Shown piece by piece: positions 54,017-62,898 of a stretch of DNA of 64,000 nucleotides. Made by a program: the position numbers and the translations under genes. The stretch is taken from NCBI GenBank assembly GCA_964291235.2, contig OZ219815.1:1152001-1216000 (forward strand), written 5' to 3'. Below the pieces are notes generated by a model. It saw nothing but the letters and a program-made list of their open reading frames with translations. It made no database searches and was not told the origin of the DNA. Every line of letters starts with the position of its first letter. Positions within the stretch are counted from its first letter, which is position 1. The stretch comes from Vicinamibacteria bacterium (GTDB taxonomy: Bacteria; Acidobacteriota; Vicinamibacteria; Marinacidobacterales; Marinacidobacteraceae).

Positions 54017-54109
54017 GGAGAGGTACCGAAGTGGCCGTAACGGGGGCGCCTCGAAAGCGCTTTGTCCGGTGAAGAGCCGGGCACGTGGGTTCGAATCCCA
54101 CCCTCTCCG
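54017..54109 (+). tRNA. tRNA-Ser(CGA), CCA not encoded
   Basis: Acceptor GGAGAGG/CCTCTCC with G discriminator, anticodon arm GGCGC-CTCGAAA-GCGCT, long variable arm, GTGGGTTCGAATCCCAC T-arm. Confidence 0.95.
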
Positions 54110-54312
54110 CTGCCGGGGGGTTTCCCGGGGGTGCCGATTCGCTCCCGGAAGATCGCCGTAACCCCCGTATAAACCGTGGTATACTGGCTCTCATAGCCGC
54201 TTTGCCGTTCCCTTCGAATTCGGGGGGTTCCGGCCGAATTCGTGGGACCGTTCGGGGTTCGAGTTCGAATTGCGAGTTCGATCCCACGAAAAAAACGCGG
54301 TAGGAAAAACCG

Positions 54313-55482
54313 ATGGCAGCGATGACCGCAGCGAAGGCGAAGGCGCTCCGGGAGCCGGGCAAGTACCGGGCCGAGCAGACCCTCTATCTCCGGGTGAGGC
54401 CGAGCGGCCGAAAGTCCTGGGTGCAGCGCCTCACCATCCACGGGAAGCGCCGCGACATCGGCCTCGGGCCGTTCGAGCTGGTGTCCCTGGCCGAGGCCCG
54501 GATCAAGGCGTGGGAGAACCGGCGCGCCGTGTTCGAGGGGCGCGACCCTCTGGCCGAGCGCCGGCGGGCGAAGGCCCCCACCTTTCGGGAAGCCACGGCC
54601 CGGACGCTGGAAGGACTGCGCTCGCAGTGGCGAAATGGGAAGCATGCGGCGCAGTGGGCGACGACCCTCGAGACGTACGCATTCCCGACGCTTGGGGAGC
54701 AGCGGATCGATTCGATTCGCGGAGAGGACGTCCTGCGGGTTCTGCTGCCGATCTGGACGGCGAAGGCGGAGACGGCGCGGAGGGTCCGCCAGCGGATTCG
54801 GGCGGTGCTGTCCTGGGCGCAGGCCCACGGTTTTACGTCCGGCAACGTGGCGGCGGAGGGAATCGACGGCGCGCTACCGAAGGTGAACGGCCGGAAGACG
54901 CATTTCCGCGCCCTTCCCTACCAGGAGGTAGGAGAGGCCCTGGCGGTGGTGGACGGATCCCCAGCAAGTCTCGCGGCCCGTCTCTGTTTCCGGTTCCTGG
55001 TCCTGACCGCGGCGCGGTCCGGCGAGGCTCGCGGGGCGCGTTGGAGCGAGATGGATATGAAGGCCCGCGAGTGGCGCATCCCCCGCGAGCGGACGAAAAC
55101 GGGTGCGCCGCATCGGGTCCCCCTGTCTAACGAGGCGATGGCCGTTCTGGAGCGGGCGCGTGCTTTGGACGACCGTAGCCAGGTGGTGTTTCCGGGCCGC
55201 CAGCGCGGGCGGGAACTATCCGACATGACGCTGACGAAGATCCTCCGGGAGCGGGGGTTGGCGGACCGGGCCACCGTCCACGGATTCCGCTCTAGCTTTC
55301 GCGACTGGTGCGCGGAGGGGGGCGCGCCGCGAGAGGTCGCGGAAGCAGCGCTGGCGCACACGGTCGGGGGAGTTGAGGGGGCGTATTTCCGCTCTGATCT
55401 GTTCGAGCGCCGCCGGGCGCTCATGGAGTCCTGGGGAGCGTTCCTGACTGACTCGACGCGAGCTCGGGCTGTGCCAGGGTAG
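54313..55482 (+). CDS. P4-like tyrosine integrase with Arm DNA-binding domain
   Basis: LYLRVRPSGRKSW..GLGPFELVSLAEAR; LTAARSGEARGARWSE, TVHGFRSSFRDW, ALAH, AYFRSDLFERRR (R-H-R-H-Y intact). Confidence 0.95.
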   Translation: MAAMTAAKAKALREPGKYRAEQTLYLRVRPSGRKSWVQRLTIHGKRRDIGLGPFELVSLAEARIKAWENRRAVFEGRDPLAERRRAKAPTFREATARTLEGLRSQWRNGKHAAQWATTLETYAFPTLGEQRIDSIRGEDVLRVLLPIWTAKAETARRVRQRIRAVLSWAQAHGFTSGNVAAEGIDGALPKVNGRKTHFRALPYQEVGEALAVVDGSPASLAARLCFRFLVLTAARSGEARGARWSEMDMKAREWRIPRERTKTGAPHRVPLSNEAMAVLERARALDDRSQVVFPGRQRGRELSDMTLTKILRERGLADRATVHGFRSSFRDWCAEGGAPREVAEAALAHTVGGVEGAYFRSDLFERRRALMESWGAFLTDSTRARAVPG

Positions 55483-55656
55483 GGATCCTAGGAGTCAGCT
55501 CAGAACCCGCCGCACAACTCCGTGTCGCACTAGCGGCTGCGTCGTCTCATAGCTGACGACCACTACATTCGGCCAAACTTGGCTAGAGCCGCGCCCGTCG
55601 ATCCGTCACGACGATGTCGCAACCCCTTCTTTCAGGCACCGGTCGCTCAACCTGGT

Positions 55657-56076
55657 CTAGCGGCCGAAGCCGGACCCGGCTCGATGTCCGCTTGGCACAA
55701 ACGGGTTCTCTAGAAAGTTGTCGTCGAACTTGTCCAAGCTGGAACGCGCTGCCTTTGCCATCTCTCGAATCAGCGTTTTGAGATTCACGGCGGTCTTCTC
55801 CGCGAAGTAGCACTTCAGGGCTCGGACCACGTTGTCATCGCCGTAGTAGGCAACCGCGACCTCGTTTAGCGCGACAAACGGCTCGCCGGGCCCTCGATGG
55901 GACGCCATCGCGGCCGTCAACAGGTGTCTGCTACCCAACAAGCGCCGGAGCACGTCGCGCTTCGGCGCGAGGATGTGCGTACGACGGGTCCACCACAAGC
56001 TGACTGCCGCGATGGTCACCGCCGTACCCGAAGCAATCAGACCCCAGTCTGTGACTGCGACTTGGTGACAGTCCAC
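55657..56076 (-). CDS. Hypothetical single-TM protein (DUF6680-like)
   Basis: N-terminal TM, KRDVLRRLLGSR, ALNEVAVAYYGDDNVVRAL, LIREMAK pattern. Confidence 0.65.
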   Translation of the reverse strand: MDCHQVAVTDWGLIASGTAVTIAAVSLWWTRRTHILAPKRDVLRRLLGSRHLLTAAMASHRGPGEPFVALNEVAVAYYGDDNVVRALKCYFAEKTAVNLKTLIREMAKAARSSLDKFDDNFLENPFVPSGHRAGSGFGR

Positions 56077-56236
56077 TTATTTCGTCCTCCTAGTTCTCGT
56101 GCTTGAGAGTGCAACTCCGCTCAGAGGCGACCGTTCATCCGGGAAACCGTGAAGAGCAAACCGACCGAATGCGCGTAGTCGATTCTACGAACGGCAGCCC
56201 TCTTGGGCCGTGGTGATAGTCATCGAGGACACAGGA

Positions 56237-56266
56237 AGTGTGCCATAACTGCCATTGTCAAGGACT
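56237..56266. other. lox-like recombination site, left (IRL)
   Basis: AGT-GTGCC-ATAA-CTGCCA-TTGT-CAAGG-ACT: dyad arms around a 6-bp spacer; 13-bp core is the exact reverse complement of 57703-57715. Confidence 0.78.
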
Positions 56267-56430
56267 AATGTGTAGCTGATAACACACTACTGTCACGCTA
56301 TGTCATGTTCGGTGGGTTTACAGGCGCTAGTTGGTGATTTTCGATCACGAGAGGCGGATCGGCACGGAGCCACACTCGCGCACCGATCCCCAACGCCGAT
56401 TGGGGCGGGGACCCGGCCGCGCGCAGCGAC

Positions 56431-57468
56431 CTAGAGGAAGGCGGCGCCCGCATGGTCCTCGAAGGCTTCCGCTTCCCGGATGTACCGCAGGACCGTGCGA
56501 GGGCTGGTGTGCCTGGTGATTTCCATGATCTTCTCCAGCCGCGCTCCATGGATCGCCGCGCTGGTCACGAACCCCGCTCTAAGCGAATGGCCCGAGTAAT
56601 CCGCAGGATCCAGCCCAATCGCTTGCACGTAGTGCTTCACCAGACGTGCTACGTCGGAGGGGTGCATCGCCCTTCCCTGCACGACTCCGCCCTGCCGCAT
56701 CGTCTGGAAAACCGGTCCGCGGACTATTCCCGCCAGCGCGAGCCACTTTTTCAGCCGCGCTACGGGCCGGACCAGGCTCCCTTCCGGTACCGGAATGCTC
56801 TGGCCTTCGCCGAACTGGTCGGTCTTGGACTTCCGGATGTGGACGAACATGCCGGAGGCACAACGCGCCGGGCCCAGAAACTGAAGGTCTCGCAACTGGA
56901 GCCCGCAGATCTCCGACCGGCGCAGCGCCGCTGCGAAACCGATGGCAATCAACGCCGCGTCCCGCGTTGCGATGCGCCGGAACCTCCCGTGTGCCGCGAA
57001 CACATCACAGCGTGACAGCATGCGAGCAATCTCGTGCTCCCGTAGCGCCTTCACCCGCCGCGGCTGTCCATCCGACAAGCGCCTGAGCCCCTGCAGGACC
57101 CTGTTCACCTTCGGGTCGGTCGTCGGTGGAATCCGGCCCGCCTCGCGATACCGCCGATTGATCCCGGCCAGGAAGATCCTCAGGGTACCCACCGCTAGAG
57201 GCCTTTCACTACGCGTCGTGGTGTCTCGAGCTTGAAGTCCTGAAGCCAACGTCACCAGAAAGCCGGCGACGGTGTCGGGCGTCGCAGCCATGGGATCGCT
57301 TTCGTTCTCTTCGCAGTAAGCGGTAAACCGCTGCCAGCCTCTCTCGTAGGCGGCGTTGGTGTTTGCGGACACGGATGTCCGAATGGCCTCGGTCACCAAG
57401 GACTCGGCGCCGGTTCGCTGTTCGTGCGCTTTGTCGCTCGAACCTCGCTTCGCTAGGGCCTGGGGCAA
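56431..57468 (-). CDS. Cre-like tyrosine recombinase (putative invertase)
   Basis: SAM-like N-domain (TNAAYERGWQRFTAYC), RDAALIAIGFAAALRRSEI, IRKSKTDQ, HSLRAGFVT, TRH..TVLRY. Confidence 0.92.
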   Translation of the reverse strand: MPQALAKRGSSDKAHEQRTGAESLVTEAIRTSVSANTNAAYERGWQRFTAYCEENESDPMAATPDTVAGFLVTLASGLQARDTTTRSERPLAVGTLRIFLAGINRRYREAGRIPPTTDPKVNRVLQGLRRLSDGQPRRVKALREHEIARMLSRCDVFAAHGRFRRIATRDAALIAIGFAAALRRSEICGLQLRDLQFLGPARCASGMFVHIRKSKTDQFGEGQSIPVPEGSLVRPVARLKKWLALAGIVRGPVFQTMRQGGVVQGRAMHPSDVARLVKHYVQAIGLDPADYSGHSLRAGFVTSAAIHGARLEKIMEITRHTSPRTVLRYIREAEAFEDHAGAAFL

Positions 57469-57695
57469 GGATCGGTCCTCCTGGACCGCAGGCCTCGCGA
57501 GTGTTCCCGTTTTCCAGTCGACGCCGGCTCACCGAACCCTCGGTTGGCCGTCACCGACGCAGTCCCCGCGGAAGGTGTAGTCGGACGGTCAAAAACGCGC
57601 GTCGAGCGGGGTCGGCTTGGCGCGCCGAGCAAGAAGGGGCTCGCTCTCCAGCGCAAGTTGGCCGCATTCCAAGTCATTGAATCTAGGCCACCAAT

Positions 57696-57725
57696 AGTAC
57701 CCGACAATGGCAGTTGTGCAGGAGT
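57696..57725. other. lox-like recombination site, right (IRR), inverted relative to IRL
   Basis: AGT-ACCCG-ACAA-TGGCAG-TTGT-GCAGG-AGT; spacer TGGCAG is the reverse complement of CTGCCA. Confidence 0.78.
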
Positions 57726-57930
57726 AGTGTGTTTCCGATGGCACGGAGCCAACGCGGCCGCGCGTAGTCGCGCTCTGGTGAGCGGCCTGCGCTGGTGCGA
57801 CTCAGTTCAGAGATCGTGCTTGAGGCTCCAACGTGCCGCCAGCCCTTCACCTAAGTGCCGAATTGAGCCGGGTCGCCCGCAACAAGTCCAGTTGTCGCGA
57901 GCAAACCGCGGGTGCCGTTGCTCTGCGAGG

Positions 57931-60900
57931 ATGCGGGGCCGGCGACTTGGCGGGATTGCGTTGCAAGGGGTAGGACGCTGCGCGCGGGCAAGCCTGGCGC
58001 GCCTGAACGCGTTGCTCACCGCCCTGGCGATAGCCGGGCTGACGTTGTTGTCCGCCCCGACGGTGATGGCCCAGTCAGACATCTGGTCGGCCTCGCTCGT
58101 CCCGAAGAGGTCGCCAAGTACTTTCTTTTGGGGCTGCGCCAACAACGACTCTGATCATTTGTGCACCGACCAGCTCTCGCCCGACTCCTTCACATACAGC
58201 GGCACGACCTATCAGGTCACAGAGGTCACGGTGAAAACTCTTCTCGACGGCACCACGGAGCTAGTTTTCGGCCTCAACCACGCGATTCCCAAAGCATTGT
58301 CGCTTTACGTCGGCAGTCGGGAGTACTCCTTTGGCGACGCACAATTCGCTGGCGACAAGGTCGCGAAGTGGAGCCCCGCTGGCCTGACCTGGGTCGGTAA
58401 TTCTACGGTTTCGCTAAGCCTAAAGCTGGACACGACGTCGCCGGCCGTCTCGAGCGCGACGGTGGACGGCGCGACGCTGACCGTCAACTTCGATGGGAGC
58501 TTGGACACCAGCTCCGTGCCCGCGCCCGGCGACTTCCACGTCACTGTGGGGAGCAGTCGCCGCCATGTCGCCGCAGGCGGCGTAAGCATCGTCGGGAAGA
58601 CCGTGACTCTTACCCTGTCATCGGCGGTCATCGCTACCGACACGGTCAAGGTGGGCTACACGCAGCCGAGCGCCAACGCGCTGCAGGACGCGAACGGCAA
58701 CAAGGTGGCGACGTTCACCGATCAGGACGTGACCAACAACTCGCCGCCGGTGATCTTGTCGGTGGCGACCACGTCTACGCCCGACCACGATTCGGATCGT
58801 AGTGGGACGCCCGACACCTACTCGCTCGGCGGGAAGATCGCCGTGGAGGTCACGTTCAGCGAGGCCGTCGCGGTCAGCGGCGGGAACGCCAACGTGAGGC
58901 TGCGCCTCGACCTGGGCGCGGACGATGCCGATCTTGACAACAGCAGAAAGCTGCTTCAGCTCCATAGCGCGAACGGCCCGACGCTGCGTTTCGAGTACAC
59001 GGTCACAGCCGCGGACACGGACCCCGACGGGATATGGGTGCAGAAGCTGAGCTCGGGCAGCGTGTTGGGCCTGGCCGGCGGCGCGACGATCACGAGCCCG
59101 CGCACGAGCCATAACGCCGTGCTGACGAAGGACGGCCTGCCGACCTCGGGCGACCCGAACCACAAGGTGGACGGCAGCGTGGACCAGTCGCCGATGTTTC
59201 AGGGCGCGGTGGTGAACGGCAAGCGCCTCACGATCACCTTCAACCGGAACCTGGACGAAAGCTCGGTGCCCCTGCCGGCCGCCTTCCCGGTGACCGTGGG
59301 GACGAGCAGCCCCGCGCATCCCGCCGAGGTGGACATCGCCGGTGCAACAGTGGTCTTGACCCTGTCTTCGCCGGTGGGCGACGCCGACACGGTCAAGGTG
59401 AAGTACACGAAGGCGGATGCCGGGGCCAACCCGTTGCGGAGCATCACCAGCATCGAAGCGGCGGCGTTCGCCGACCAGGAGGTGACGAACGAGACGCCCT
59501 CGGGCGTTCCGACGATGTTGTCGGTGTCGATCACCTCGGCCCCGTCACTGGATGCGGACGGCGACGGGACGCCGGACACGTACGGCCAGGGCGAGACGAT
59601 CTTCGTGGACGTCCGGTTCGACCAGCCGGTCGGGGTGGACGACGGCGGTGCGGCGGGCAACGTCTTCGTGTGGCTGGACATGGCCCCGAACGGCGCCCTG
59701 CGGCTGGACGAGGACCGCCGGGCGCTCCCCTTCCATGGTCTCGGCCGGGGCGGCAGGATCATGCGGTTCCAGTACACGGTGACAGCCGCTGACCGGGACG
59801 CCGACGGGGTGTTCGTGCAGCCGGACCTCGACAACGACACGGTGGTGTTCCTGAAAGGGGGCGCGAGCGTCAAGAGCCCGACCACGGACCGGCTCGCCGT
59901 ACTGAAGTTTGCGGGGCTTCCGTTCGATGGCGACACCAGCCACCGGGTGGACGGCAGCGCGATCGTCACCGCGCCGGCCTTGTCGAGGGCAGTGGTGAAC
60001 GGGCGGACTCTGACCCTCAGGTTCAGCGAGGCCCTCGACCCGTCGTCGGCGCCAGCGGGCGAAGCCTTCACGGTGAGCGGGGGTCGGTCCGGCACCGGCA
60101 CCGCGATCGTCTCCGGCAACATGGTGACAGTGACGCTGGACGCGGCCGTGGAGCGTGGCGAGGCGGTGACGGTGAGCTACGCCGCGCCGAGCAGCAACCC
60201 TCTCCGGGACGCCGACGGCAATGCCGTGGCGAGTTTTTCGGCCCGGAGCGCGACGAACGTGGAGGCCCGCCGTGAGCCGCTCGCCGACGCTGGCCCCGAC
60301 AGAACCGTGGGGCTAGGAGCGCGCGTGAGGCTCGACGGCTGGGCGAGCGTCGATCCAGACGGCGACACGCTGACGTACGCCTGGACCCAGACCGGCGGCC
60401 CAGCCCTGAACCTCAGCGGCTCCCGCAGCATAACGGCGTCGTTCACCGCGCCTGAAGTGGCCGGCACGCTGACCTTCCGTCTCACCGTCACCGATCCGGA
60501 AGGGCTCTCCGATTCGGACGAGGTGACGGTGACGGTGCGCGACCTTGAGATGAGCTTCGGCGACGCGCGGGTCGGGAGGCTGCTCTTGTCCACAGGCGAG
60601 ATGATGGAGCCGTTGCAACTGCCGGAGGCGAGCGGCGGGGGGGGTGGGGTCCGCTACGGGCTGACGTCGACGCCGGCGGGCCTGGCGGGGCTGGATCTCG
60701 ATCCGGTGACGCGATGGCTCACGGGCACGCCGACCGCGGCCGGGACCTTCACGTTCATGTGGCGCGCCACCGACGAGGACGGCGAGACGGCGGCCATCGC
60801 CTTTCTGGTGAGGGTGAACGGGGTGCCGGCCGCCCGGGCGGGGGCCGATTTCAGCGTGGACCCGGGGGCGCCGGCACGGCTCGACGGATCGGGAAGCGCG

Positions 60901-62898
60901 GACCCTGACGGCGACCGCCTGACCTTCGCCTGGACGCAGACCCTGGGCGCGCGGGTCGCGTTGTCGGACGCGAACCACGCGCAGCCGTCGTTCGAGGCGC
61001 CGTGGCGGCCCGAGCCCCTCGTCTTTCGGCTGACGGTCACCGACCCGGGCGGGCTCTTCGACTCCGACGAGGTGAGGGTGACCGTGCGGGACCTTGCGCC
61101 GAGCTTTGGCGACGCGGAGGTGGCGCCGCTGGTGCTCGACGTGGGGAATGAGATGCGAGCGGTGGTGCTCCCGGAGGCGAGCGGCGGCAACGGCGCGCTG
61201 AGCTACCGCCTGACCTCGGCTCCGGCGGGTCTCGTCGGGCTCGACTTCGATCCGGCGAAGCGCCGGCTCTCGGGGACGCCCGACGCCAAGGGGCAGTATG
61301 TCTTCACCTACCGGGCGGACGATGCTGACGGCAACCGCCAGAACTGGGACGCGGCGCTGCTGACGTTCACGGTGACGGTCAACCCGTCGGTCGAGGCGCG
61401 GAAGCGGATCCTGACGCGCACGCTGGCGGCGGTGGGCTCGACTGCGCTGTCGAGCGCGCTCGATACCATCGGGTCGCGCTTCGCCGACGCGATGCCCGGC
61501 ACGACCGTGTCGCTCGCTGGCGAGCAGCTCTCGTTCGCGGTGCCCGGCGGTGTCGGCGGCGCCCACGGGGCCTGCCCTGCGGGCGGCTACGGGGGGCACG
61601 ACAGCGAGCGGAACGGCTTCGGCGGTGGAGCCGTCGAGGGCGGCTTCGGTCGATCGGGCTTCGGGGCGGGCGCGCGCGGCTGCGGCGGTGGGATAGGCGC
61701 CCTTGGCGCCGGCGGCGACGCCGGGTGGGGCGACCTGCTCCGTTCGAGCGCCTTCTCGCTGAGTCTCGGGCAGCCCGGGGCGGACGACGCTACGGCGTGG
61801 CGCTGGGGTGTGTGGGGCGGCGGCGACGTGACGGAATTCGCAGGCGAGCCCGATCCGGGCTCGCGCTACCGGGGCGAGGCGTGGACCGGCTGGCTCGGGA
61901 TCGACGCGCGGGCGGGCCGGTGGGTTGCCGGGCTCGCAGCCTCCTACGGGGTGAGCGAATCGAACTACCGCTTCGCCGGCGGCGAGGAAACGGACGAGTG
62001 GGGCCGGCTGGTGACCAATCTGGCCGCGTTCTACCCCTACGCACGCTGGACCCTCGGCAAGGGCCTGGAGGTGCGCGGGTTGGCTGGCGCCGGCCTCGGC
62101 GTTGCGCGCCACCGTATCTGGGACCGCGAGCGCGAGTCGAGTGACCTGTGGATGTCCATGGGGTCGGTCGGAGTACGCCAGGCGCTGCCGGCGGTCGCTG
62201 GGGTCAACGTGGCGGTGCGCACCGACGCGAGCTTCGCGCGGCTGGGGACCGGCGAGGGCGAAGAGGCGGTCCACGGGTTGCGCGCAAACATCTCGCGCGC
62301 GCGCATGGGGCTGGAGGTCTCGCGGGGGTTCGCGTTGGGCGCCGGAGCGGCGATCGAGCCGTTCGTCGAATCCTCGATGCGGCGCGACGGCGGCGACGGG
62401 CTGACCGGCAACGGCTTCGAGCACCTGGTCGGGATGCGCTTTCTGACGGCCCGGCTGCAAGTTGAGGCGCGGGGGCGGCTGCTGTCACTGCACACCGCCG
62501 AGGCGGCGCGAGAGCGCGGAGCGAGCCTGACCGCGCGGCTGAGCCCGAAGCGCGACGGGCGCGGGCTGTCGCTGTCGCTGATGCCGCAGTGGGGCGCGGC
62601 GACGGGCGCCGCCGATGCGCTCTGGCGCGAGGAGATGCCGCGGCTCCACGGAGTCACCGGCAGCGGCAGCGGAACGCTCGACGCGAACCTCGGCTACGGG
62701 GTCCGGCTGGCAGCCCACGGGCTGTTGACGCCTTTCGCTACGGCGAGGGCGTCCGGCCACGGCCGGGGCTTGCGGCTCGGGACGCGCTTCGGCCTTTTGC
62801 ACGCGGACCTCGATGTCGAGCTGTCGGGCGAGCGGCGCGAGCGCAGCGTCACCGCGCCCGATCACGGCGTCAGGCTCGATCTTCGGCTCCGGTTCTGA
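57931..62898 (+). CDS. Large autotransporter adhesin with SwmB, PKD-like and putative Ig repeats
   Basis: Signal peptide ending LSAPTVMA-QS; three SwmB-like repeats (ATVDGATLTVNFDGSLD); two ADAGPD..SxDPDGDxLT(Y/F)AWTQ PKD-like domains; two LPEASGG..LxGTP Ig-like domains; C-terminal beta-barrel ending LRLRF. Start approximate. Confidence 0.88.
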   Translation: MRGRRLGGIALQGVGRCARASLARLNALLTALAIAGLTLLSAPTVMAQSDIWSASLVPKRSPSTFFWGCANNDSDHLCTDQLSPDSFTYSGTTYQVTEVTVKTLLDGTTELVFGLNHAIPKALSLYVGSREYSFGDAQFAGDKVAKWSPAGLTWVGNSTVSLSLKLDTTSPAVSSATVDGATLTVNFDGSLDTSSVPAPGDFHVTVGSSRRHVAAGGVSIVGKTVTLTLSSAVIATDTVKVGYTQPSANALQDANGNKVATFTDQDVTNNSPPVILSVATTSTPDHDSDRSGTPDTYSLGGKIAVEVTFSEAVAVSGGNANVRLRLDLGADDADLDNSRKLLQLHSANGPTLRFEYTVTAADTDPDGIWVQKLSSGSVLGLAGGATITSPRTSHNAVLTKDGLPTSGDPNHKVDGSVDQSPMFQGAVVNGKRLTITFNRNLDESSVPLPAAFPVTVGTSSPAHPAEVDIAGATVVLTLSSPVGDADTVKVKYTKADAGANPLRSITSIEAAAFADQEVTNETPSGVPTMLSVSITSAPSLDADGDGTPDTYGQGETIFVDVRFDQPVGVDDGGAAGNVFVWLDMAPNGALRLDEDRRALPFHGLGRGGRIMRFQYTVTAADRDADGVFVQPDLDNDTVVFLKGGASVKSPTTDRLAVLKFAGLPFDGDTSHRVDGSAIVTAPALSRAVVNGRTLTLRFSEALDPSSAPAGEAFTVSGGRSGTGTAIVSGNMVTVTLDAAVERGEAVTVSYAAPSSNPLRDADGNAVASFSARSATNVEARREPLADAGPDRTVGLGARVRLDGWASVDPDGDTLTYAWTQTGGPALNLSGSRSITASFTAPEVAGTLTFRLTVTDPEGLSDSDEVTVTVRDLEMSFGDARVGRLLLSTGEMMEPLQLPEASGGGGGVRYGLTSTPAGLAGLDLDPVTRWLTGTPTAAGTFTFMWRATDEDGETAAIAFLVRVNGVPAARAGADFSVDPGAPARLDGSGSADPDGDRLTFAWTQTLGARVALSDANHAQPSFEAPWRPEPLVFRLTVTDPGGLFDSDEVRVTVRDLAPSFGDAEVAPLVLDVGNEMRAVVLPEASGGNGALSYRLTSAPAGLVGLDFDPAKRRLSGTPDAKGQYVFTYRADDADGNRQNWDAALLTFTVTVNPSVEARKRILTRTLAAVGSTALSSALDTIGSRFADAMPGTTVSLAGEQLSFAVPGGVGGAHGACPAGGYGGHDSERNGFGGGAVEGGFGRSGFGAGARGCGGGIGALGAGGDAGWGDLLRSSAFSLSLGQPGADDATAWRWGVWGGGDVTEFAGEPDPGSRYRGEAWTGWLGIDARAGRWVAGLAASYGVSESNYRFAGGEETDEWGRLVTNLAAFYPYARWTLGKGLEVRGLAGAGLGVARHRIWDRERESSDLWMSMGSVGVRQALPAVAGVNVAVRTDASFARLGTGEGEEAVHGLRANISRARMGLEVSRGFALGAGAAIEPFVESSMRRDGGDGLTGNGFEHLVGMRFLTARLQVEARGRLLSLHTAEAARERGASLTARLSPKRDGRGLSLSLMPQWGAATGAADALWREEMPRLHGVTGSGSGTLDANLGYGVRLAAHGLLTPFATARASGHGRGLRLGTRFGLLHADLDVELSGERRERSVTAPDHGVRLDLRLRF

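Follow-up and report, generated by a model that had tools for sequence, protein, structure and literature searches.

The switch described here lies in the window, by which we mean the whole 64,000-nt stretch of DNA that was analysed, and the positions of its features are collected in Table 1. A tRNA-Ser(CGA) gene stands at the head of the locus and is followed by the gene of a P4-type integrase. The G+C content is lower over this stretch, up to about position 58500, with values of 0.56–0.66 against about 0.70. Because the tRNA-Ser and the P4-type integrase precede them and the G+C content is lowered, the switch and its target gene sit in an integrated genomic island. For the far end of this island, a downstream direct repeat was sought in the genome with a 66-nt probe from the 3' end of the tRNA-Ser, and none was found.

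Table 1. Genes, recombination sites and promoter elements of the switch locus (positions in the window)
Feature	Position	Strand	Remarks
tRNA-Ser(CGA)	54017–54110		precedes the integrase gene
P4-type integrase	54313–55482		Arm-DNA-bind_3, Phage_int_M, Phage_integrase
Conserved gene, 139 aa, with N-terminal hydrophobic stretch	55657–56076	-	just past the left site; co-directional with the recombinase as assembled
Left recombination site	56244–56270		3' of the recombinase gene; outer arm faces positions up to 56243; inner arm holds the putative -35; core 56247–56259
Putative mobile -35, TTGACA	56256–56261	-	inner arm of the left site, reads out of the segment
11-nt exact inverted repeat, AACACACTACT	56281–56291 (inner copy)		partner 57723–57733, overlaps the putative -10
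Cre-like tyrosine recombinase, 345 aa	56431–57468	-	PF00589 (1.7e-12), PF02899; inside the invertible segment
Weak candidate promoter of the recombinase, TTGTCG-N16-TAGATT	57680–57707	-	8/12 in a relaxed scan; low confidence
Right recombination site	57692–57718		5' of the recombinase gene; inner arm reads CCGACA (57701–57706) where the left site has TTGACA; core 57703–57715
Putative fixed -10, TAGTGT	57725–57730	+	outer flank; 18 nt from the post-inversion position of TTGACA
Surface protein, 1655 aa; secreted repeat protein, putative adhesin	57931–62898	+	three SWM_repeat, two K319L-like PKD, three He_PIG and one Big_5 domain; signal-peptide-like N-terminus

The label 'adhesin' for the 1655-aa protein is a reasonable one, as judged from the predicted signal peptide and the SWM_repeat, PKD, He_PIG and Big_5 domains. 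Its C-terminal 455 aa gave no Pfam match even at an E value of 10, and a single-sequence AlphaFold model of this part reached a pLDDT of 31.6, which is too low to use. By eye, the end of the protein (...RLDLRLRF) gives the impression of the end of an outer-membrane barrel. The 5' leader of the gene has no Rfam match and a fold z-score of 0.14. Further downstream, an ORF of the AIM24 family (PF01987, 63342–63998) starts about 440 nt past the surface-protein gene and continues beyond the end of the window.

The 139-aa gene has no Pfam or NCBIfam match and was found only in the window and at the closest related locus, L109, where the ORF at the same position is 79% identical. This neighbour is better conserved than the recombinase, which is 70% identical between the two loci. 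The target gene of L109 encodes a 1910-aa protein with fn3, Calx-beta, SWM and cadherin domains, and its repeats are 30–42% identical to those of the window protein. As L109 keeps a related recombinase, a repeat-protein target and the 139-aa gene, the module of three genes is conserved.

Read data were consulted as Logan contigs. Of six runs, four, from three samples of one study, contain 98–99% of the sampled words. In run X1, one contig of low depth (3.2 versus about 52) joins position 55453 to 56235. The joint leaves out 781 nt, the 139-aa gene among them, and stops 9 nt short of the left site; it may represent a variant or the element of a relative. The stretch 55270–55540, at the 3' end of the integrase gene, appears to be common to other elements, since its summed depth is several-fold higher.

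The protein encoded between the two recombination sites is a tyrosine site-specific recombinase. The PF00589 match reaches 47.9 bits, above the cutoff of 27.1, and the protein holds tyrosine-recombinase domains only, the catalytic domain of the serine invertases (Hin/Gin/Cin) being absent. Its catalytic set (R183, K215, H294, R297, H320 and Y329) is invariant in 26 homologues and aligns with the LLR, TKT, HSAR, W and Y motifs of Cre. Cre is also the best solved match (E = 2.5e-7, 33.6 bits, residues 88–334), at the level of a distant relationship. The NCBIfam equivalog models of XerD and XerC gave 44.9 and 39.5 bits, far below their cutoffs of 329.6 and 335.15. The ORF is full length, with 345 aa like its closest homologues. 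A large protein search returned 2168 homologues at E <= 1e-10 among 8000 candidates scored, the best of them with 80% identity. No second close copy was found in the window's own genome, and none of 60 relatives of this genome holds a homologue at E <= 1e-20, so that an orthologous locus for a comparison of orientations is missing among these 60.

A repeat search of the window identified the two sites of Table 1 as an inverted repeat of 27 nt with 81% complementarity. They share an identical core of 13 nt, AACTGCCATTGTC, which has two exact matches in the 3.45-Mb genome, both at the switch sites (21 matches at two mismatches or fewer). Judged by their letters, the sites appear lox-like, that is, dyads whose inverted arms enclose about 8 bp of spacer, with the shared core of the window extending over 13 nt. 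In their current arrangement they form an inverted pair that flanks the intact recombinase gene and encloses a segment of about 1.4 kb (about 56260 to 57702). The layout is that of an inverton: inverted repeats surround a segment, a gene to be regulated adjoins it, and a recombinase is at hand.

An earlier note on this DNA had proposed that inversion of the segment would assemble a sigma-70 promoter across the crossover, and the letters and positions on which this was based are correct. The right junction reads CCGACA (57701–57706), a spacer of 18 nt (57707–57724) and TAGTGT (57725–57730). The minus-strand TTGACA in the inner arm of the left site (56261–56256, TGTCAA on the plus strand) is present, and there is no -10 opposite it, as claimed, because the hexamers there are CTTCCT at 17 nt and TTCCTG at 18 nt. 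When the segment is inverted in silico between the cores, TTGACA falls exactly at 57701–57706 and TTGACA-N18-TAGTGT results. The distance of about 200 bp to the adhesin gene also agrees, the likely start codon (ATG at 57931) lying 200 nt past the -10. At the scan threshold given below, no complete promoter-like site was found in the invertible DNA; the -10 is located outside the right site.

The assembled state had been called OFF, and the sequence agrees with this: the -35 and the -10 are on different junctions, and no promoter-like site was found in 55500–58200 at the scan threshold of at least 4/6 per hexamer (0 sites). A terminator-like site was likewise not found in 55500–58200 as assembled. 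In the in-silico inverted state, TTGACA-N18-TAGTGT (57701–57730) is the best promoter-like site in 56000–58000 with 9/12, and falls below the scan rule by its -10. Compared with sigma-70, this junction would have a -35 of 6/6, a spacer of 18 nt and a -10 of 3/6 versus TATAAT, with A2 and T6 present. TAGTGT would thus be weak as a -10 by E. coli standards. No TG of an extended -10 was found upstream of the -10 hexamers in the aligned sites of the family. An ECF-sigma reading of the AAC...CGT motifs was considered and rejected; ECF promoters have 16–17 nt between their motifs, and here the motifs are 19 nt apart by hand count.

Homologous loci were collected from species-representative genomes, from the five genomes with the best matches (12 copies), from metagenome contigs, and from 151 genomes of the order of one best-match genome, of which 14 held a match at E <= 1e-90, in 30 places. 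A script searched downstream of the recombinase gene for TTGAC followed by a core, 7 nt or longer, of which an inverted copy is present upstream of the gene. Such a pair was found at 27 of 39 recombinase copies, and the other 12 had none. Three of the 27 were dropped, which leaves 24 rows. L211 is the same stretch as L208; L105 is an orphan, for which the 'partner' proposed by the script lay in coding sequence; and L107 was mis-paired by the script. The true inverted partner of L107 was found separately, and this locus fits the rule described below.

In 24/24 rows, TTGACA is located on the arm beside the 3' end of the recombinase gene, and TAnnnT is located on exactly one outer flank. Measured from the position of TTGACA once inverted, the spacing is N18 in 21 rows and N17 in three. 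The -10 hexamers are TAACGT (eight rows), TAGCGT (seven), TATCGT (two) and TAGTGT (two), with TACCGT, TAAAGT, TAACTT, TAGTAT and TATGGT in one row each. In the same loci, the background frequency per position is 0.0013 for TAnnnT and 0.00011 for TTGACA; set against this, the recurrence indicates that the split in the window exceeds chance. The conservation of TTGACA is partly built in, as the loci were selected by a TTGAC search, while the -10 was unselected. The rows are not independent, some of them being orthologues, but they carry 19 different crossover spacers.

Alignment of the sites gives the consensus gcTCCnTA for the inner arm, AC-N5-T for the spacer and TAGnGGAGC for the outer arm. 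The two sites of a switch share one crossover spacer, which differs from that of other switches. In place of one of the four arms stands gCTTGACA, and TAnCGT follows on a single outer flank. TTGACA is identical in 23/23 aligned family sites, all of them from loci selected by the TTGAC search, and the other three arms vary between paralogues (TCCCTA, TCGGTA, TACATA, CCGACA). With 19 distinct spacers among the rows, the two hexamers are constant as arms and spacers diverge. An outside constraint, in the form of RNA polymerase, would most simply explain why TTGACA and TAnnnT alone are invariant.

The inner copy of the 11-nt repeat in Table 1 lies inside the segment, 19 nt from TTGACA. This repeat was considered as an alternative crossover or accessory site and set aside, having no counterpart in the 23 other rows. 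Nothing comparable to an inner copy of the -10 flank was found in these 23 rows, and the window is the clear case among 24: matches to the -10 flank in L106 reflect the palindromic arms of its own site, and those in the remaining rows are isolated 9-mers. After inversion, the two 11-nt copies would become direct repeats flanking the promoter.

Both orientations occur among the assembled loci. The arrangement of the window, OFF, is found in 21 rows, and in the OFF loci neither current junction has a -10 at N17/18. Three rows (L207, L197 and L198) are assembled ON, with TTGACA-N17/18-TAnnnT on one junction. In a BLASTN comparison of L206 with L207, which are from two genomes, the flanks are collinear and the central 1.2 kb is on the opposite strand with 87.7% identity. 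Similarly, BLASTN places the central 1.2 kb of L198 on the minus strand of L210 and both flanks on the plus strand, and the segment of L197 is inverted relative to the one flank that aligns with L195. As orthologous segments are inverted between collinear flanks in three pairs, the sites of this family do recombine by inversion. The genomes compared are species-level, and the pairs therefore record inversion over evolutionary time and are silent on its rate or on fast phase variation. The split promoter with a mobile -35 and a fixed -10, suggested earlier from a single locus, is thereby supported in the family by the 24/24 conservation, the three ON loci and the three inverted orthologous pairs.

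In 25/25 loci examined, the -10 flank is followed by a gene directed away from the site; in 17 of them the gene is an automatic ORF pick. In eight loci checked with Pfam, the gene begins past the -10 flank and reads away, six with domain matches and two without; these targets include the repeat protein of the window, the L109 protein, redoxin and peptidase C39 genes, and a PQQ-propeller protein. For 17 further loci, a script took the longest ORF starting 30–700 nt past the -10 flank. Ten of these 17 ORFs were sent to Pfam and four matched (fn3, JmjC_2 twice, and GPP34/P450). Overall, 10/18 target ORFs sent to Pfam have domain matches. Several targets start, by eye, with signal-peptide or lipoprotein-like N-termini.

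From these observations we propose that the segment in the window is a self-contained invertible element, whose internal Cre-like recombinase would recombine the two inverted lox-like sites. The inner arm at the 3' end of the recombinase gene would have been shaped into a perfect sigma-70 -35, and the outer flank of the other site would hold the -10. In the assembled orientation the two halves lie 1.4 kb apart and face nothing useful, and the switch should for this reason be OFF. Strand exchange in the shared core would bring TTGACA to 18 nt from TAGTGT, allow a transcription start near 57737 and turn the target ON. Recombinase bound to the arms might repress the ON promoter, as the earlier note had suggested; given that -35 and spacer are taken up by the arms, this is plausible. 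Read-through could add to expression in the ON state, since no terminator-like site was found between the recombinase gene and the target. We consider such a split-promoter switch to be the probable mechanism at the window locus. With the promoter divided where crossover takes place, the OFF state should be very tight, and recombination site, promoter and perhaps operator would be one and the same 40 bp.

The architecture could also be real while the window copy is static, a locked-OFF relic on a horizontally acquired island. The position in a tRNA-Ser island would suit such a relic, as would the decay seen in related switches (L195, L105 and L110) and the read data, in which only the OFF orientation was seen. 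The contigs of 4/4 runs bridge both sites as assembled, with no strand-changing joint and no inverted form of the window locus. These OFF-only contigs are weak evidence against flipping, because contigs drop rare variants. Against a locked relic stand the full-length recombinase ORF with all catalytic residues, the identical 13-nt cores and the two intact promoter halves. We regard a static copy as a possibility worth keeping in mind, and as unlikely; the window copy presumably still flips.

If the element flips, expression in the ON state could come mainly by read-through from the recombinase transcript, with a whole promoter travelling in the segment as in Hin-like systems and the TTGACA/TAnnnT pair contributing little. 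The recombinase gene does point at the target after inversion, no terminator-like site was found in the region, as noted, and in L191 only about 21 nt separate the recombinase stop from TTGACA. Also, the weak candidate promoter of the recombinase (Table 1) would travel with the segment in both states, because it is inside the core and the segment. Read-through leaves unexplained why TTGACA and TAnnnT at N17/18 are kept in every row and across 19 spacers while the neighbouring arm bases diverge, and why the -10 occurs only on the flank that adjoins the outward-reading gene. For these reasons we find it quite improbable as the main source of ON expression. The assembled hexamers would probably fire.

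The two hexamers might instead serve the recombinase, or an accessory protein, as asymmetric determinants in the arms, setting for example the order or direction of strand exchange, with their promoter likeness incidental. Both are in or beside the arms, and the middle of the -10 is oddly constrained, with TAnCGT in 18/24 rows. Further, L106 and the group of L191, L202 and L208 have a distal inner arm that partly mirrors the -10 region, so that the -10 region may also contact the recombinase. This alternative is very unlikely to account for the hexamers, since determinants of this kind would be expected on both sites or arms, yet the other three arms vary and TTGACA is invariant; the mirrored inner arm of L106, TAACGC, matches its outer flank, TAACGT, except at the last position, where a -10 requires T; the hexamers are spaced by 17–18 nt; and an outward ORF follows the -10 flank at every locus, with Pfam matches in more than half of those submitted.

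The split architecture belongs to a subclade of these recombinases, being absent from 12/39 copies and from 22/24 metagenome loci. Among the 24 metagenome loci examined (L111–L133 and L143), the architecture was found in L111 only and 22 gave nothing, four of which are short of flank (L112, L117, L127 and L132). A 7-nt match in the metagenome locus L122 was without a -10 and was treated as chance. No inverted repeat of at least 14/16 was found in 19 metagenome loci tested, and no repeat of at least 13/14 in 10 genome copies without a site. Three site-less copies, L195 (with an orphan site), L209 and L208b, lie near the TTGACA site of another switch.

Decay of individual switches was observed in three forms. 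In L195, at about 1000–1560, the -10 flank has been lost and replaced by transposase/IS-like sequence. In L105 the TTGACA site at about 8597 is kept, with no true partner within 18 kb. The recombinase of L110 (7579–8543) matches in two frames, an apparent frameshift, and both of its sites are intact.

Phase variation by DNA inversion is textbook knowledge, and in known systems the flipped DNA carries either an entire promoter or a piece of a coding sequence. The Hin/hix switch of Salmonella (fljBA) resembles the locus described here in having the recombinase inside the segment, an outward promoter function at one end and a surface protein that is ON in one orientation. It differs in using a serine invertase, a Fis-bound enhancer and a whole promoter inside the segment, whereas here a tyrosine Cre-like enzyme is found and only the -35 is inside. 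The fimS element of E. coli with FimB and FimE likewise involves tyrosine recombinases, short inverted repeats (most of the relatives studied here have 9 nt) and the ON/OFF control of a surface adhesion structure. Its recombinase genes are outside and a complete promoter is inside; the present switch encloses its own recombinase gene, with the promoter divided by the crossover site.

Cre/loxP of phage P1 provides the closest solved homologue and a comparable site, in which the two arms of a dyad enclose a spacer of about 8 bp. In addition, the difference in spacer between paralogous switches of one genome recalls heterospecific lox sites. The sequence relationship to Cre is distant, as described above, and the natural role of Cre is not gene switching; we know of no promoter split across loxP. 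The circle-junction promoters of IS911, IS30 and IS2 are alike in that a -35 and a -10 on separate DNA ends are joined by recombination. They depend on DDE transposases and transient circles and serve transposase expression, whereas here the recombination would be a reversible chromosomal inversion that serves a host surface-protein gene.

Bacteroides-type invertons, as described in PhaseFinder-like surveys (PMC11602134, PMC11892184), are similar in that several switches per genome lie beside surface-structure genes. In these invertons, the whole promoter lies between the repeats and the master recombinase is often remote, in contrast to the own recombinase and half promoter found here. The 'hybrid promoter' in a passage of PMC9820224 refers to an IS1 insertion. 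PMC11868660 makes no mention of a split, hybrid or juxtaposed promoter, and no such description was found in PMC11602134. Searches of the open-access literature found no naturally occurring inverton whose promoter is divided at the crossover, and an earlier description may exist.

Comparison among loci raises what was a guess from one locus to a rule of the family, with 24/24 rows, 19 spacers and both states in assemblies. We lean somewhat towards a broader reading, in which these loci represent a widespread clade of self-contained 'lox-promoter' switches, each with its own Cre-like recombinase, a private spacer, and a -35 and -10 parted until inversion, and in which the recombinase could also repress the ON promoter. 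On the 'lox-promoter' reading, several units could coexist in one genome without cross-talk, because each uses a private crossover spacer. If this is true, inverton surveys that seek a complete promoter between repeats would miss the class, and its members would constitute a natural set of orthogonal, low-leak recombinase switches. The family would also offer naturally orthogonal pairs of Cre-like enzymes and sites, and points to phase-variable surface proteins in uncultured bacteria that are known from metagenome-assembled genomes alone.

Several related genomes carry, 0.2–2.5 kb downstream of the TTGACA site of a switch, a second recombinase that is paralogous and has no sites of its own. 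Examples are L208 (second copy 1181–201), L209, L103 (6433–7416) and L104 (9666–8704), in which the second gene and the TTGACA site point the same way when the switch is OFF. A second paralogue beside the switch is a further likeness to fim; it recalls the FimB/FimE pair, and by this analogy its expression could possibly depend on orientation.
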